Of a DNA stretch of 5,934 bases, positions 226 to 5,934 are shown in pieces. The position numbers and the translations under genes are program-made. The number at the start of each line of letters is the position of its first letter. The stretch's first letter is position 1. The stretch is taken from the IMG/VR virus record IMGVR_UViG_2526164609_000027; one strand, 5' to 3'. The stretch comes from a virus. Taxonomy: Duplodnaviria > Heunggongvirae > Uroviricota > Caudoviricetes. The notes under the pieces are model-generated. The model saw only the letters and a program-made list of their open reading frames with translations. It did not search any database and was not told where the DNA came from.

Positions 226-257
226 TGGAGCACCTCAAAAACACCATCATACACTAA

Positions 258-280
258 ATCAGTAAGTTGGCAGCATCACC
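258..280 (-). repeat. IS1 terminal inverted repeat (IRL, about 23 bp)
   Basis: Sequence ggtgatgctgccaacttactgat on the minus strand; this is the outermost IS1 end and marks the insertion junction at 280/281. Confidence 0.8.
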
Positions 281-517
281 AAGGCGAGCTTCATTTAACG
301 CCTTACGCAGTTGCAGAATTTCAGATTCCAGTTCAGCCACCGTGCGGGAACCAGGAGTACCGAGCCCTTTTCTGGCGGCGGTAACCCATTGTCCTAAAGT
401 GCCTTCAGGAAGGGATAATCGGGAAGCGCCTTCACTGATCGAAAGTTGATTTTCAAGAACCGTTCTGACAGCTTCGGCTTTGAACTCTTTAGAGTAACGT
501 TGGTTTTTTCTGCTCAT
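281..517 (-). pseudogene. IS3-family transposase OrfA (HTH + leucine-zipper part), truncated by IS1 insertion
   Basis: Translation MSRKNQRYSKEFKAEAVRTVLENQLSISEGASRLSLPEGTLGQWVTAARKGLGTPGSRTVAELESEILQLRKALNEARL has the HTH-then-heptad architecture of IS3-family OrfA. In the track ORF (254..517) the last 8 residues GDAANLLI and the stop are encoded by the IS1 terminal repeat, so the native ORF is cut at 280/281. Confidence 0.7.
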
Positions 518-1295: not shown

Positions 1296-2366
1296 ATGGC
1301 TAACGCCTGGCTCAGATTATGGCATGACATGCCAAATGACCCTAAGTGGCGAACAATTGCCAGGGTGTCAGGGCAGCCAATTGCAACAGTGATGGCAGTG
1401 TATATCCACCTCCTGGTGAGCGCGTCACGAAATGTCACGCGAGGTCACATTGATGTCACGACAGAAGATTTGGCAAGTGCGCTCGACGTGACAGAAGAGG
1501 TAATTGATTCAATTTTGCAGACGATGCAGGGGCGGGTACTTGATGGTGATTTAATCACTGGATGGGAAAAACGCCAGGTGCTGAAAGAGGACAACGGCAA
1601 TATTCCGCAAACCGCAAAATCTCCTGCAGAGCGCAAGAGGGCGCAGCGAGAGAGGGAAAGAAAGCGGGAACAAAATGGCGATTGTCACGGCGCGTCACGA
1701 TATGTCACGCACATGTCACGACGAGTCACGACAGATAAAGATACAGATAAAGATACAGATCAAGAAGATCAAAACACTATGGTCCATGGCGTAAAAAACG
1801 CCACGAACCAGGCAGGGGATGTTCAGACCGTCAATCCTGGTCAGCCAGCAGGCACGACACCGGAAGCCGATTCAGCGTATGCGCTGAAAGCCGATTCGGG
1901 CGCTGTGCAGCAGGTGATGACCGCAAGTCCGGAGCAATCACACCAACTGCAGCAGCCTGAAGCCGATTCCGCCATTCAGCGGGAAGCCGATCGGGTAGTC
2001 CCGGAAAACACCGGGCAGTCTGTGGGACGAGTGGATTATCCGGATGTGTTCGAACAGGTCTGGCGGGAGTACCCGTTGCGTGCCGGGGCAAACCCGAAGA
2101 AATCCGCTTTCAGTGCCTGGAAGGCCAGATTACGCGAGGGGGTGCCACCAGAGGCCATGCTGGATGGCGTGAGGCGTTACGCAAGATACCTGGCGGCTAC
2201 CGGGAAAACGGGAACGGAATTTGTTCAGCGAGCGACGACGTTTTTTGGACCGGACCGGAATTTTGAGAACCCCTGGTTGCTCCCGGTAAGCGGCACGAAC
2301 AACCAGCGTTGTGTGAATCATATTTCTGAACCGGATAGCGAAATTCCGCCGGGCTTCAGGGGGTAA
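1296..2366 (+). CDS. Phage replication initiation protein with DnaT-like (primosomal protein I-like) C-terminal domain
   Basis: Long ORF directly after the cro/cII-like pair. Likely start is ATG 1296 (MANAWLRLWHDMPNDPKWRTIARVSG...) with AAGAGG SD at 1284-1289; the track's GTG 1290 abuts the SD. The C-terminus ...NHISEPDSEIPPGFRG closely resembles the C-terminal tail of E. coli DnaT as I recall it (...SEPDSQIPPGFRG). An acidic low-complexity linker (DKDTDKDTDQEDQ) sits mid-protein. Confidence 0.85.
   Translation: MANAWLRLWHDMPNDPKWRTIARVSGQPIATVMAVYIHLLVSASRNVTRGHIDVTTEDLASALDVTEEVIDSILQTMQGRVLDGDLITGWEKRQVLKEDNGNIPQTAKSPAERKRAQRERERKREQNGDCHGASRYVTHMSRRVTTDKDTDKDTDQEDQNTMVHGVKNATNQAGDVQTVNPGQPAGTTPEADSAYALKADSGAVQQVMTASPEQSHQLQQPEADSAIQREADRVVPENTGQSVGRVDYPDVFEQVWREYPLRAGANPKKSAFSAWKARLREGVPPEAMLDGVRRYARYLAATGKTGTEFVQRATTFFGPDRNFENPWLLPVSGTNNQRCVNHISEPDSEIPPGFRG
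1421..1460. repeat. Iteron cluster 1: four direct GTCAC(G/A) repeats at 10-11 bp spacing (putative initiator binding sites)
   Basis: GTCACG at 1424, 1434, 1455 and GTCACA at 1444; an inverted copy CGTGAC at 1487-1492. Lies within the N-terminal coding part of the replication gene. Confidence 0.6.
1681..1730. repeat. Iteron cluster 2: five direct GTCACG repeats at 10-11 bp spacing (putative ori core)
   Basis: GTCACG at 1684, 1694, 1704, 1715, 1725. The hexamer falls in all three codon phases, so the repeat is at the DNA level rather than a peptide repeat. The cluster resembles cluster 1 over about 45 bp (both end gtcacgacaga). Confidence 0.65.
1731..1770. repeat. Tandem 12-bp repeat (acagataaagat x2 plus a degenerate third copy) with two GATC sites, directly after iteron cluster 2
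   Basis: acagataaagat at 1731-1742 and 1743-1754, then acagatcaagaagatc; GATC at 1758-1761 and 1767-1770. Encodes the acidic DKDTDKDTDQEDQ linker. Flagged as A-rich by eye, not computed. Confidence 0.55.
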
Positions 2367-2406: not shown

Positions 2407-2829
2407 GTGGCAAAAGTTTTTACACAAGAAGAGCGGGAAAAAATTAAAGGGCAGGTTCTTGAACTCGTACGCCAGAGTGGGCGCGAGACGTTACGACAAC
2501 TGGAAGCTAAAACTGGGGCAACAAGATATCTGATGAGCGTTCTGGCCAGAGAGCTGGTTGCCAGTGGCGATGTATACAACTCTGGTTACGGGTTATTCCC
2601 GTCTGAACAGGCGCGTAAGGACTGGCAAAATGCCCGTAAAAAGCTCTCAAGGGCAAAGCTGAAGAAACCATCTGCGGTTGATCCGGACCTTATCTGGTCA
2701 TTACCTGACGGAGAAATACGTCGCTACGACAGTCGCCTAAACATAATCTGTCGCGAGTGCCGGAAGAGCGAAGTTATGCAGCGCATATTGTCGTTTTATC
2801 AGGGTAATTTTCAGGAGGTGATGGCGTGA
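2407..2829 (+). CDS. Hypothetical protein, possibly winged-helix-like DNA-binding N-terminus (function unknown)
   Basis: 140-aa ORF with GTG start 2407 preceded by AGGAGG at 2397-2402. The N-terminal segment LELVRQSGRETLRQLEAKTGATRYLMSVLARELVASGDV looks winged-helix-like by eye; a basic central stretch (RKKLSRAKLKK) follows. No family recognised. Confidence 0.65.
   Translation: MAKVFTQEEREKIKGQVLELVRQSGRETLRQLEAKTGATRYLMSVLARELVASGDVYNSGYGLFPSEQARKDWQNARKKLSRAKLKKPSAVDPDLIWSLPDGEIRRYDSRLNIICRECRKSEVMQRILSFYQGNFQEVMA
2803..2818 (+). promoter_or_regulatory. Conserved translation-initiation motif GGTAATTTTCAGGAGG, copy 2 (inside the 3' end of the upstream gene)
   Basis: Identical 16-mer to 2387-2402; AGGAGG at 2813-2818 is 7 nt upstream of GTG 2826. 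Confidence 0.55.
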
Positions 2830-3131
2830 GGGTGAGAGTCTATATCGCCGGTCCAATGACCGGGTATAAAAATTTCAACCGTGAGGCGTTTCACAATGCG
2901 GAAGAGGAACTGAAACGGGAAGGGCATACCGTCTTAAACCCGGCAGTACTTCCGGACGGGCTGACACAGCCGCAGTACATGGATATCTGCATGGCGATGA
3001 TTCGTTGTGTGGATGCGATTTACATGCTGAAAGGCTGGCAGCGGTCAGCAGGCGCTAAGGCAGAACTGGCGCTGGCGGAGAAACTGGGGCATGCGGTGAT
3101 TTTTCAGGAGACAGCCAGTGTGCAAGACTAA
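2826..3131 (+). CDS. DUF4406-family protein (nucleoside 2-deoxyribosyltransferase-like Rossmann fold)
   Basis: 101-aa ORF with N-terminus VYIAGPMTGY...F and a C-terminal motif GWQRSAGAKAELALAEKLGHAV, recognised by eye as the DUF4406 / NDT-like pattern with a conserved Glu. GTG start 2826 overlaps the upstream stop (GTGA); GTG 2832 is an alternative. Confidence 0.75.
   Translation: MRVRVYIAGPMTGYKNFNREAFHNAEEELKREGHTVLNPAVLPDGLTQPQYMDICMAMIRCVDAIYMLKGWQRSAGAKAELALAEKLGHAVIFQETASVQD
3098..3110 (+). promoter_or_regulatory. Conserved translation-initiation motif GATTTTTCAGGAG, copy 3 (inside the 3' end of the upstream gene)
   Basis: Shares the core TTTTCAGGAG with the two 16-mer copies; AGGAG at 3106-3110 is 7 nt upstream of GTG 3118. 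Confidence 0.5.
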
Positions 3132-3573
3132 TTACCAGGCATTACGTGAACGTTATTCACCAATTCAGGTGCCGGAATGTCCTGTTTGTGGCGATGAAAT
3201 GTCGATACAGCGCATATTTTCCAGAACGCATATTGTGTATGCCTGCACAGGTGAGGGGGATGATGGATATTTTAAAACTGGTCGAACTTTTGCGGATGAG
3301 CATTACCTGAAATCGCGCGTAACCGTCGTTGATGTTAGCGATCCTGACGTACTGGCTTTACTGAAAGAGCTGGAAGTTAAAGACAAACGCATTGCAGAAT
3401 TGACAGATGCGCTTACACAAATGATTAATGCGCACAAAACCACAATTCGTTTTGGTCATGAACGCATAACTGAATGTGGTGGTGATTGCGACTCGCCGGA
3501 AAAGATGATTTCAGAAAATCCGGATATCAGAATGGCAGAGGCTGTTTTGAGAGCAGGAATAAAAACTGAATAA
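3118..3573 (+). CDS. Hypothetical Cys-rich protein (putative zinc ribbon plus coiled-coil segment), function unknown
   Basis: 151-aa ORF with GTG start 3118 overlapping the previous gene by 14 nt. Contains CPVCGDEM...(16 aa)...C and ECGGDC motifs and a heptad-like stretch LALLKELEVKDKRIAELTDALTQMI. Alternative starts GTG 3166 and ATG 3199 lack a good SD. Stop at 3571-3573, 12 bp before the IS66-family end. Confidence 0.6.
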   Translation: MCKTNYQALRERYSPIQVPECPVCGDEMSIQRIFSRTHIVYACTGEGDDGYFKTGRTFADEHYLKSRVTVVDVSDPDVLALLKELEVKDKRIAELTDALTQMINAHKTTIRFGHERITECGGDCDSPEKMISENPDIRMAEAVLRAGIKTE

Positions 3574-3622
3574 TTAAATTTAGCAGTAAGCGTGTAGCAA
3601 GAACCGTATTGACGGGGATGTG

Positions 3623-5161
3623 TTATTCAGTCGGCAGTGCTACGCGCCAGGGGAGCAGTTCGCCGACCCGGTTTATCGGCCAGTCGGCTATGACGTCAAG
3701 TACATAGCGGAGGTAGCTTTCTGGCTCCACTCCGTTCAGTTTGCACGTCCCGATCAGGCTGTACAGCAGCGCTCCCCGCTCTCCTCCATGATCCGAACCG
3801 AAGAACAGGTAGTTTTTGCGGCCCAGACTGACCATCCGCAACGCATTTTCAGCGATGTTATTGTCCGCCTCAGCCCAGCCATCATCTGCATAGTACGTCA
3901 GCGCCGGCCACTGGTTCAGGGCGTATGCGAACGCTTTCGCCAGTTCTGAGTGTCGCGACAGGGTTTTCATCTTTTCACGCAGCCAGCTTTCCAGGGATTT
4001 CAGCAGCGGTTTCGTTTTCAACTGACGTTCGGCAAGGCGCTGCTCCGCCGTCATTCCCCTTATCTCTGCCTCGATGGCGTACAGTTCGCCGATCCGTTTC
4101 AGCGCTTCCTCCGTCAGGGCTGACGGGGTGCGAACGTGCACATCGTGGATTTTACGGCGGGCGTGAGCCCAACAGGCGGCTTCCGTTATCCGGCCATCCC
4201 GGTACAGCTCGTTGAACCCGGCGTATGCATCCGCCTGCAGTACACCACTGAACCCCGCAAGATGGGTCTGCGGATGGATGCCTTTTCTGTCCGGGCTGTA
4301 AGCGAACCACACCGCCGGCGCCAGCGTTGACCCGGCGTTACGGTCGTCACGAACGTAGGTCCATAACCGCCCGGTCTTCGTTTTCTTATTGCCTGGCAAC
4401 AGCACCGGGACAGGCGTGTCATCAGCATGGAGCTTACCGTCAGTCAGCACATAGTCCTGAAGCGCTTCTTCCAGCGGTGACAGTAGCCGGCAGCATGCAT
4501 CCACCCAGCCCGACAGCAGTGAACGACTCAGCTCCACGCCCTGGCGGCCGTACATTTCAGACTGGCGGTACAGCGGGGTGTGCTCTGCATACTTTGAGAT
4601 CAGCACGCGGGCCAGCAGCCCCGGTCCTGCGATACCCCGCTCGATGGGCCGTGAAGGCGCGGGGGCCTGCACGATGGCATCGCACTGAGTACAGGCATGC
4701 TTTTCACGTACAGTCCGGATAACCCGGAAGACGCTGCGCATCAACTCCAGCTGTTCGGCGGCATCCTCACCCGGATAGCTCAGTGAGCCTCCACATTCCG
4801 GGCAGCATGACGCTGCCGGCAGCAGCCGTTTTTCATCGCGGGGGAGTGATTCGGGGAACGGTTTGCGGGTGCGGGTTTGACGCAGCGGGCGCTGCACGGC
4901 CGGGTCGTCAACCCGACCGGTAAGGGTATCACTTTCTTTCTGAAGTGCCTTCAGGTCAGCTTCCATCTGTGCGATACGACGGGAGACTTTTTCGGAGCGG
5001 CTGCCGAAGTTCATCCGGCGCAGCTTATCCAGCTGTGCCTGCAGATGGTCTATTTCGCGTTCACGCTCGTTCAGCTTTTCCAGCAGGGCACGGTTCAGCG
5101 CCTCCTGTTCGGCAAGGAGACGTTTCAGTGCATTGATATCGTCAGGAAGTGAGCTGCTCAT
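3623..5161 (-). CDS. tnpC: IS66-family transposase TnpC (DDE transposase with N-terminal coiled coil and zinc-binding motif)
   Basis: 512-aa ORF. N-terminal coiled-coil-like stretch ([26 protein letters not shown]...), CxxC...CxxC motif (CCPECGG ... CTQC), then a long catalytic region; size and architecture as in IS66 TnpC. Confidence 0.9.
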
Positions 5162-5209
5162 ACCGGGTATATTACCAGGCTCATTCAGCGTCGACCAGGA
5201 TAAAGAGGC

Positions 5210-5557
5210 TTACAACATAGTCAGGGACGTAAGCAGTCTTTTAGGCTGCCGCCAGTCGATACCTTCAAGGAGCATCGCCAGCTGTGCCGGTGTGAGGAAC
5301 ACTTTGCCATCCCGGGCTGACGGCCAGGCGAAGCGGCCGCGCTCCAGCCGTTTGGTCAGCAGACACAGTCCATCGCCGGTAGACCAGAGGAGCTTTACCT
5401 GACTGCCATTACGCCCACGGAAGATAAAAACGTGACCTGACATCGGAGCGTCTTTCAGCGTCGTCTGCACCTTTGCCGCCAGGCCGTTGAAGCCATTTCT
5501 CATATCGGTGATACCGGCAACCAGCCAAATTTTGGTCCCGGAAGGTAACGGGATCAT
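5210..5557 (-). CDS. tnpB: IS66-family accessory protein TnpB (Orf2)
   Basis: 115 aa, MIPLPSGTKIWLVAGITDMRNGFNGLAAKVQ...LAMLLEGIDWRQPK, matching the IS66 Orf2 pattern (e.g. ISEc8 ...IWLVAG.TDMR..FNGL...) as I recall it; ATG overlaps the tnpA stop (ATGA). Confidence 0.9.
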   Translation of the reverse strand: MIPLPSGTKIWLVAGITDMRNGFNGLAAKVQTTLKDAPMSGHVFIFRGRNGSQVKLLWSTGDGLCLLTKRLERGRFAWPSARDGKVFLTPAQLAMLLEGIDWRQPKRLLTSLTML

Positions 5558-5934
5558 CGCTTCAGTTCCTGTATCAGCAGAGTCAGGAGCTTTTCGCTGA
5601 CATTGCCATTAAAGCGGAGCGTCCCGTGCCGGAACGTTACCTCACAGCTGATACTGAGGGTTTCCGGATCCTCTGCGAGCGATTCTGGCTGTTCGGCAGC
5701 TGCATCGAGAGTCACAGGAAGTAGCTGGGGGCTCTCTGAAGAAGGTAATAGCAGCTTTCCCTCGCGCCATTGTTGTCGCCATTTGAACAACAGATTGGCG
5801 TTAATGCCATTTTCAAGAGCAAGTTTTGAGATGGATATCCCGGGTTCACAGGAGGCAGCAACGAGCTGCTGTTTAAATTCGGGAGGATAATTAGGGCAGC
5901 CTTTTCGCCTGCCGGGATTCACATTTTTCTGCAT
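5554..5934 (-). CDS. tnpA: IS66-family accessory protein TnpA (Orf1, HTH); possibly 5'-partial at window edge
   Basis: 126-aa ORF with an HTH-like segment (PEFKQQLVAASCEPGISISKLALENGINANLLFKWRQQW) in first position of the IS66 gene triad. Its ATG is the last three bases of the window, so the true start could lie further out. Confidence 0.8.
   Translation of the reverse strand: MQKNVNPGRRKGCPNYPPEFKQQLVAASCEPGISISKLALENGINANLLFKWRQQWREGKLLLPSSESPQLLPVTLDAAAEQPESLAEDPETLSISCEVTFRHGTLRFNGNVSEKLLTLLIQELKR

Follow-up and report, generated by a model that had tools for sequence, protein, structure and literature searches.

In phage lambda, the replication origin is contained within the gene for the phage's own initiator, O, where iterons are followed by an A+T-rich, purine-rich tract and then by a palindrome. 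Among the phage replisome organizers (PF09681), a repeat-rich central region serves as the origin. Repeats inside their own initiator genes have been reported for lambda, P22, and L, and in gene 18 of phage L six imprecise 11-base pair (bp) repeats (TGTCCAACGGA) have been proposed as the origin (PMC8022706); the RepA_N plasmid pSK41 has its origin inside rep (PMC5703833). In lambdoid O genes and RepA_N plasmids it has been established that the N-terminal part and the origin form a unit, which is combined with exchangeable C-terminal parts (PMC5703833). Here we describe a candidate origin in IMG/VR record IMGVR_UViG_2526164609_000027. The window (the whole stretch of DNA that was analysed) comprises 5,934 bases, and all coordinates follow the numbering of its + strand. 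Positions 1422-1810, which lie inside an open reading frame (ORF; 1296-2366, + strand) for a 356-amino acid (aa) protein of the phage replisome organizer/phrog_3729 type, are very probably the replication origin of a lambdoid prophage, placed within the coding sequence of its own initiator. The initial annotation had proposed such an in-gene origin, and the predictions that this makes at the level of sequence all came out in its favor: there is conservation at synonymous positions, the repeated word co-varies with the protein, the adjoining tract is a weak duplex, the array falls in a linker, and other clusters are lacking in three complete phage genomes.

The locus shares several elements of its architecture with the origin in gene O. 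In both, the iterons lie inside the initiator ORF, in the segment that encodes the interdomain linker; an A+T tract of about 40 bp, purine-rich on the coding strand, follows them directly, with an inverted repeat beyond it; the N-terminal part and the origin form a specificity module while the C-terminal part is exchangeable; and the gene is found in the early right operon behind cro and cII-like genes. However, there are also clear differences. Lambda has four symmetric sites of about 19 bp that are bound by dimers of O, whereas the repeats here are direct, are spaced at 10-11 bp, and have a core of 6-7 bp with no dyad. In addition, a second array and an inverted copy are located about 260 bp upstream, within the region coding for the DNA-binding domain. 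Finally, the window protein gives no match to Phage_rep_O (PF04492), and there is no downstream P gene in the window's lineage. Thus, the parallel with lambda that had been drawn at the outset holds for the arrangement of iterons in the linker followed by an A+T tract, but does not extend to the encoded protein, which is not a homologue of lambda O.

The word GTCACG occurs 11 times in the window, compared with an expectation of 2.69 ± 1.61, and none of 200 shuffles reaches 11. Nine of these copies are found between 1424 and 1730, eight of them forward in two arrays and one inverted; the remaining two are at 4346 and 5431. Array 1 (1422-1462, + strand) contains GTCACG at 1424, 1434, and 1455 and GTCACA at 1444, and it encodes a surface loop of the protein, aa 44-56 (ASRNVTRGHIDVT). 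Array 2 (1682-1730, + strand), the candidate core origin array, contains five copies of GTCACG, at 1684, 1694, 1704, 1715, and 1725. (Nine forward hexamers had been claimed initially; eight are exact, while the copy at 1444 matches the word at 5 of 6 positions.) The inverted copy lies where it had been reported, at 1487-1492 on the - strand, 63 nucleotides (nt) past the start of array 1, and the same offset is seen in many homologues of the GTCACG class. Copy-to-copy spacing is 10 or 11 bp in both arrays, giving a core word of 6-7 bp (TGTCACG) that is repeated at one helical turn. Tandem Repeats Finder reports a 10-bp period across 1683-1733 and 2.9 copies of ACAGATAAAGAT at 1731-1765; the latter, with GATC at 1758 and 1767, is the tandem repeat with two GATC sites noted in the initial annotation.

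Several lines of evidence argue that these repeats are selected as DNA and not as peptide. Counted from the start codon (ATG 1296, not GTG 1290; homologues start with MANAW or MANSW), the copies of array 1 occupy codon phases 2 (ASR), 0 (VT), 1 (GH), and 0 (VT), and those of array 2 occupy phases 1 (CHG), 2 (ASR), 0 (VT), 2 (MSR), and 0 (VT). This phase count confirms, for each array, the earlier statement that all three phases are used. When synonymous codons were permuted within the gene, the maximum was 7 copies, with 8 or more in 0 of 20,000 trials (eight forward copies are observed); resampling of codons with the usage of five phage ORFs gave at most 4 copies in 5,000 trials. Because neither procedure ever reaches the observed count, the excess of repeats is not due to the protein sequence. 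The codon choices are uniform, with all four forward-oriented Val-Thr pairs using GTC-ACG and all three Ser-Arg pairs in the arrays using TCA-CGA, which ends in the rare codon CGA. When 27 homologues from about 25 species, with N-terminal domains 60-97% identical to that of the window, are aligned by codon, third positions are 93% conserved in the array-1 iterons versus 55% elsewhere in the domain (Mann-Whitney p=8e-6). Furthermore, the third iteron of array 2 is shifted by one base between two E. coli alleles (ICHD in one, RVTH in the other), and the word is kept. The initial annotation had considered DNA-level selection likelier than a peptide repeat and had suggested looking at synonymous positions in homologues; the recoding trials, the third positions, and the allele phase shift bear out that judgment, and the hexamers are indeed kept at such positions.

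An explanation at the level of the peptide, codon, or mRNA, for example translational pausing on the rare CGA, would account for the location of the repeats within a coding region and for the invariant TCA-CGA of the Ser-Arg pairs. It is nevertheless exceedingly improbable, given that the hexamer is read in three phases as three unrelated peptides, VT, (C/G)H, and SR, that alleles change both phase and peptide and keep the word, that synonymous sites are far more conserved inside the word than outside it, that the inverted copy is also conserved, and that the linker is predicted to be disordered.

Immediately after array 2 there is an A+T-/purine-rich tract (1731-1775, + strand), made up of the 2.9 copies of ACAGATAAAGAT and the two GATC sites, which is a candidate DNA-unwinding element. 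The tract, which is of AGATAAAGAT type, is 71% A+T and 73% purine on the coding strand. Of all 40-bp duplexes across the 5,934 bases, the one at 1735-1774 has the lowest stability (-43.4 versus -56.8 ± 4.1 kcal/mol, z=3.26). The computation of A+T content and duplex stability that had been suggested for this position therefore returns the stability minimum of the window. The same property is seen across the homologues. In 66 loci, A+T content over the 50 nt past the final array-2 iteron is 18% above the average of the gene, and purine content is 13% above it (p ~3e-12); in nearly all of these loci the tract starts with (A/C)(C/T)AGATAAAGATAAAGA or a close variant. The motif (A/C)(C/T)AGATAAAGA... 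is kept after array 2 in all iteron classes, and this starting motif is independent of the iteron word, of the C-terminal domain, and of the codon phase.

Directly past the tract lies an inverted repeat (1780-1810), with arms of 13 nt (1780-1792 and 1798-1810) separated by a 5-nt spacer. A G+C-rich inverted repeat is present at the equivalent place in homologues (score 8.35 versus 6.85 for controls, p=2e-8). Hairpins located 40-100 nt past array 2, after the tract, in L092, L108, L145, L152, L167, and other homologous loci have stems that differ from one another, and their loops recur as TGAC, TAAC, or ...TCACTACGTTCGG...; this combination of differing stems with recurring loops looks like compensatory change in a hairpin, which might act as a cruciform, in RNA, or in single-stranded DNA. 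The inverted repeat might alternatively belong, together with the T-rich complement of the tract, to an intrinsic terminator of leftward (antisense) transcription and not to an origin. A consensus scan does score a terminator-like site on the minus strand, and the minus-strand geometry of a hairpin followed by a pyrimidine tract recurs in homologues. However, the T run is short and interrupted (TAGTGTTTTG), terminator-like sites in the window are at chance (2 found versus 2.3 expected), there is no antisense promoter above chance, and lambda has an analogous palindrome beside its A+T-rich region. We regard a terminator as a highly unlikely explanation.

The layout is not peculiar to the window. 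Homologues collected by tblastn against phages and by a scan of one genome per species show it to be common to about 80 bacterial species and several phages, with relatives in the gamma-, beta-, and alpha-proteobacteria, the Acidobacteria, and others. At least 2,156 clusters of homologues were found. Within the first 720 nt of the gene, a best hexamer with at least three one-turn-spaced pairs is found in 64 of 84 loci, whereas none of 281 control stretches taken from these loci has one. The arrays are positioned at about nt 117-160 and about nt 345-460 of the gene. A phased array 2 is present in 66 loci, in all of which the ORF continues through it, and its copies are distributed over the three codon phases as 77/93/86; in 56 loci each array has two or more copies of one common word. 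As in the window, the repeats are direct, have an asymmetric core, and follow a 10/11-bp period (221 and 46 spacings). The word itself varies with the clade of the N-terminal domain, as GTCACG, GTAACG, GCAACG, CGAACG(C), GTGACG, and others, with ACG(C) as the common core. Since distant homologues keep the layout and use a different word, the site co-varies with the protein.

This co-variation also bears on whether the arrays could be the sites of some other protein, such as a partition centromere, a packaging site, or sites for the YdaT/cII-like protein or a host factor. The arrays do resemble parC, with their two clusters of about five direct repeats of 10-11 bp (in R1, parC consists of two sets of five 11-bp repeats), and a YdaT-like gene is located upstream in the E. 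coli, Aeromonas, and Pseudomonas relatives. Yet the arrays accompany the N-terminal domain even where the neighboring genes are entirely different; Ralstonia phage Hennie and the cyanophage loci, for instance, lack a YdaT-like gene. In addition, the word varies according to the clade of that domain, and there are no partition genes. Such sites are thus a poor candidate, with very little probability.

Somewhat less remote, but still unlikely, is that the arrays are regulatory, serving as an autoregulatory roadblock or in titration or handcuffing, and that the true origin is elsewhere in the phage. Iteron plasmids do use extra clusters for control (P1 incA and F incC), array 1 has no A+T tract behind it, and both arrays lie within a transcribed gene. 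What speaks against this is that array 2 has the anatomy of an origin, with a readily melting purine tract beside it and in most cases an inverted repeat as well, and that there are no copies near the early promoter region. In addition, in three complete phage genomes at least three copies of the word within 50 bp are found only at the two arrays; because there is no other cluster in these genomes, no alternative iteron origin is available. A regulatory role may nonetheless be correct for array 1 alone. In P1 (incC/incA) and F (incB/incC), too, two arrays of one initiator-binding word are present near rep, and only one of them adjoins a melting region, whereas at the present locus both arrays are inside the ORF, about 230 bp apart.

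For the protein encoded by the gene, NCBI names the representative of its cluster, P0001 (98% identical; the cluster has 5,786 member sequences), 'phage replisome organizer', phrog_3729 is described in PHROGs as 'replication initiation protein', and some phage records carry the annotation 'replication protein O'. The N-terminal domain (aa 1-128, encoded by 1296-1679, + strand) is predicted to consist of a winged helix and a basic helix. In the AlphaFold model, helices at 2-14, 16-25, and 29-45 are followed by a low-confidence loop at 46-53, in the segment encoded by array 1 (aa 44-56), and then by the winged helix (helices 56-63 and 67-77, hairpin at about 81-88) and the basic helix (110-126). 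The closest fold appears to be that of the DnaD N-terminal domain, and the N-terminal domain of the initiator is presumed to be the one that binds the iterons. Residues 128-243 are predicted to be disordered, and array 2 together with the tract encodes aa 130-160 within this linker. A confidently folded helical domain follows (aa 245-333, 2028-2294, + strand), which presumably recruits host replication proteins. The tail (aa 333-356, 2292-2363, + strand) is DnaT-like: the last 24 residues (…NHISEPDSEIPPGFRG) give a match (E ~1e-3) to the very C-terminus of E. coli DnaT. The remainder of the C-terminal domain is not DnaT-like, and alleles with another C-terminal domain carry the full DnaT DNA-binding domain (PF17948). 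These matches hint that the initiators use the restart-primosome route for helicase loading.

The N-terminal domain has no Pfam model of its own. Searched alone, it gives a sub-threshold match to PF09681 (Phage_rep_org_N) of 15.8 bits, with E=0.015 and a gathering cut-off of 23.3; the match is collinear and covers model positions 1-116 of 121. A scan with the full-length protein gives no match to PF09681. Besides the NCBI name, it is this collinear, sub-threshold match that the protein has in common with the phage replisome organizers of lactococcal phages and with SPP1 G38P; it differs from them in the score (15.8 versus 23.3 bits), in the absence from the window protein of the C-terminal domain PF09524, and in the iteron word and second array, which are specific to the present group. 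The RepA_N initiators of Firmicutes, such as pSK41 Rep, are different as well: PF06970 is not matched by the window protein (full length E<=0.1, N-terminal domain E<=1) and is not among the best 25 of 61 families by number of A4 members matched, the hosts and phages are those of Proteobacteria, and the C-terminal modules are other ones. P22 and L gene 18 are likewise lambdoid initiator genes with repeats of their own, which in L are short and spaced at one turn, but a two-array layout has not been described there, and tblastn with the N-terminal domain against phages returns no P22-like or Salmonella phage records. Searches of the PDB gave no further relatives: Foldseek with the full-length model, half of which is disordered, finds nothing significant there, and a profile of the N-terminal domain matches no PDB sequence. 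The kind of origin is already known from lambda, P22, L, and pSK41, whereas the family is different, very widespread, and without an origin described in the searchable literature; what could go beyond the known kind is that the second array is conserved and that the AGATAAAGAT tract is invariant.

The gene is mosaic, and its joint lies directly behind the tract. Some E. coli alleles share with the window only nt 1-464 of the gene, a segment that ends within the A+T tract just past array 2, and in others the shared part begins at nt 482. BLASTP comparison of the segment 3' of the origin in 62 loci yields 20 mutually unrelated groups. The next gene also varies, being lambda-P-like, DnaB, DnaC/IstB-like, or a primase-helicase; the window's lineage has none of these, and the lambda-P-like gene is present in relatives with other C-terminal domains. 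From the mosaic alleles, the 20 C-terminal groups, and the varied partners it follows that the N-terminal domain and the origin are one inherited unit and that the partner-recruiting half is exchangeable. In Pseudomonas phage Marin (L004 2501-3401), the ORF, annotated as a 'hypothetical protein', ends at 186 aa, shortly past the origin, and a primase-helicase gene follows; therefore, the N-terminal domain and the origin can occur without a fused C-terminal domain. With the origin at this position in the initiator genes, it becomes clear why their mosaic joint lies precisely behind it.

A mechanism can be proposed from these features. Monomers of the winged-helix domain would bind array 2 head to tail, one per turn and on one face of the DNA, and would form a complex like the lambda O-some that stresses and opens the adjoining AGATAAAGAT tract. 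It would then fall to the C-terminal domain, with the DnaT-like tail, to recruit the helicase-loading machinery of the host. Array 1, which is located about 260 bp (about 25 turns) upstream of array 2, probably binds the same protein because the same word is present in both arrays; together with the inverted copy it may provide auxiliary sites that enlarge or loop the complex, or that limit initiation. We infer binding, melting, and recruitment from the precedents of lambda and pSK41.

Array 1 differs from array 2 in that no melting tract lies behind it. At least two copies of a locus's own word are present upstream of array 2 in 56 loci, and these are not always in the same loop. In L158, L165, and L166, which belong to a Stenotrophomonas/Lysobacter-type clade, the upstream array lies in a loop at aa ~26-34 (gene nt ~56-104) and encodes, for example, VTSVTSVTNVT; a Pseudomonas allele (L116, gene nt ~160-230) has a 23-aa insertion of extra iteron-type peptides in the array-1 loop. 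It was also considered whether specificity is set by the iteron-encoded loop itself, in a self-referential code, and this was rejected: L160 and L164 keep the array-2 GTCACG without the loop peptides, from which it follows that the array-1 peptides do not set specificity, and the other loop used in L158, L165, and L166 also rules it out. The array-1 peptides thus appear to be passengers that are tolerated in permissive surface loops. On the other hand, because an upstream array is kept in two loops and the inverted copy is kept at a fixed offset, array 1 should have a function. One possible, though tentative, reading is that array 1 is a functional second initiator-binding array, maintained by selection at most a few hundred bp upstream of the origin proper, and that the tract is a sequence-specific site for loading a partner. 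Under this reading, array 1 would have been rewritten repeatedly into a tolerant loop, mostly aa 44-56 and elsewhere aa ~26-34; array 1 and the inverted copy would act jointly with array 2, either through wrapping or looping of about 25 turns of DNA or through handcuffing; and the AGATAAAGAT tract, which is invariant across iteron classes and phyla, would be more than weak DNA.

Certain observations weigh against placing the origin here, or against parts of that assignment. Promoter-like sites in the window are found at chance number. DnaA boxes, too, are at chance (10 found versus 8.8 expected in the window), and none is within the origin. Array 1 is missing in about 10 of 66 loci and lies in another loop in others. 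The phase differences between the two arrays are non-random, but this is no more than suggestive, since the loci are related to one another and the mean phase shifts with the helical repeat that is assumed. Finally, no binding or origin-activity experiment for any family member was found in the searchable literature. The same literature, with most subscription journals beyond reach, contained no description of these iterons; a rep_origin feature is absent from the record tables that were examined in full.

The window is a fragment of a lambdoid prophage that has been disrupted by insertion sequences (IS). It begins with what we take to be the left end of an IS1 (~1-281, InsA frame on the minus strand, terminal repeat GGTGATGCTGCCAACTTACTGAT...), nested in an IS3-family orfA (254-517, minus strand); the C-terminus of orfA is chimeric because IS1 inserted into it. 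Next is a remnant of the early operon (581-1224, + strand), consisting of a 5'-truncated cro-like gene, which extends to 802, and a YdaT/cII-like gene (799-1224, + strand). The ORF at 533-802 is chimeric; similarity to cro of phage Tritos begins only at 581, about 105 nt into the Tritos gene. Three genes follow the initiator gene: a DUF977/Ren-like gene (2407-2829), a DUF4406 gene (2826-3131), and an Ead/Ea22-like gene (3118-3573). (A perfect match to the DnaA-box consensus, TTTTACACA, is found at 2418-2426, at the start of the DUF977 gene; this pattern is at chance window-wide.) Directly after the Ead/Ea22-like gene the prophage is interrupted by an IS66-family element (~3600-5934, minus strand) that looks complete, with tnpC (3623-5161), tnpB (5210-5557), and tnpA (5554-5934) all on the minus strand, tnpA being an ATG-initiated ORF that begins at the last base of the window. 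An Rfam scan of the window detects no RNA family.

In phage Tritos the genes are ordered cI, cro, cII-like gene, replication gene, and DUF977, and the record has neither a helicase-loader gene nor an annotated origin; Tritos and Evi, relatives that are inducible phages, have the same initiator gene and no loader. Relative to this order, the window prophage has lost cI, pR (the early promoter), and the 5' end of cro, and is therefore defective. Since the IS insertions removed these elements, the origin in the window is probably silent, and expression of the initiator from the native promoter is unlikely. In relatives of this prophage (phage Tritos, 29634-29686), the immunity region is preceded by the dicB/DicF cell-division-inhibition cassette and by ydfA-C, and the module thereby belongs with the Qin/Rac-like prophages of E. 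coli. A scan of IMG/VR finds near-identical E. coli copies only. The module is present as well in phages whose hosts include Aeromonas, Pseudomonas, Ralstonia, and many further bacteria.

A match to the module is present in about half of the complete E. coli genomes (2,699 of 5,426), and for this module there is now a concrete, testable candidate origin. The words of the different clades (GTCACG, GTAACG, GCAACG, CGAACGC), set on a conserved scaffold, possibly represent orthogonal initiator-origin pairs, and such pairs could serve in studies of how specificity evolves and in the building of vectors. The gene is also a clear case of overlapping codes, in which the residues of a loop and of a linker follow from the binding sites. 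If array 1 does act as a second binding array that cooperates with array 2, the coding sequence of the initiator would be part of the nucleoprotein complex at the origin and would have been shaped by that complex.

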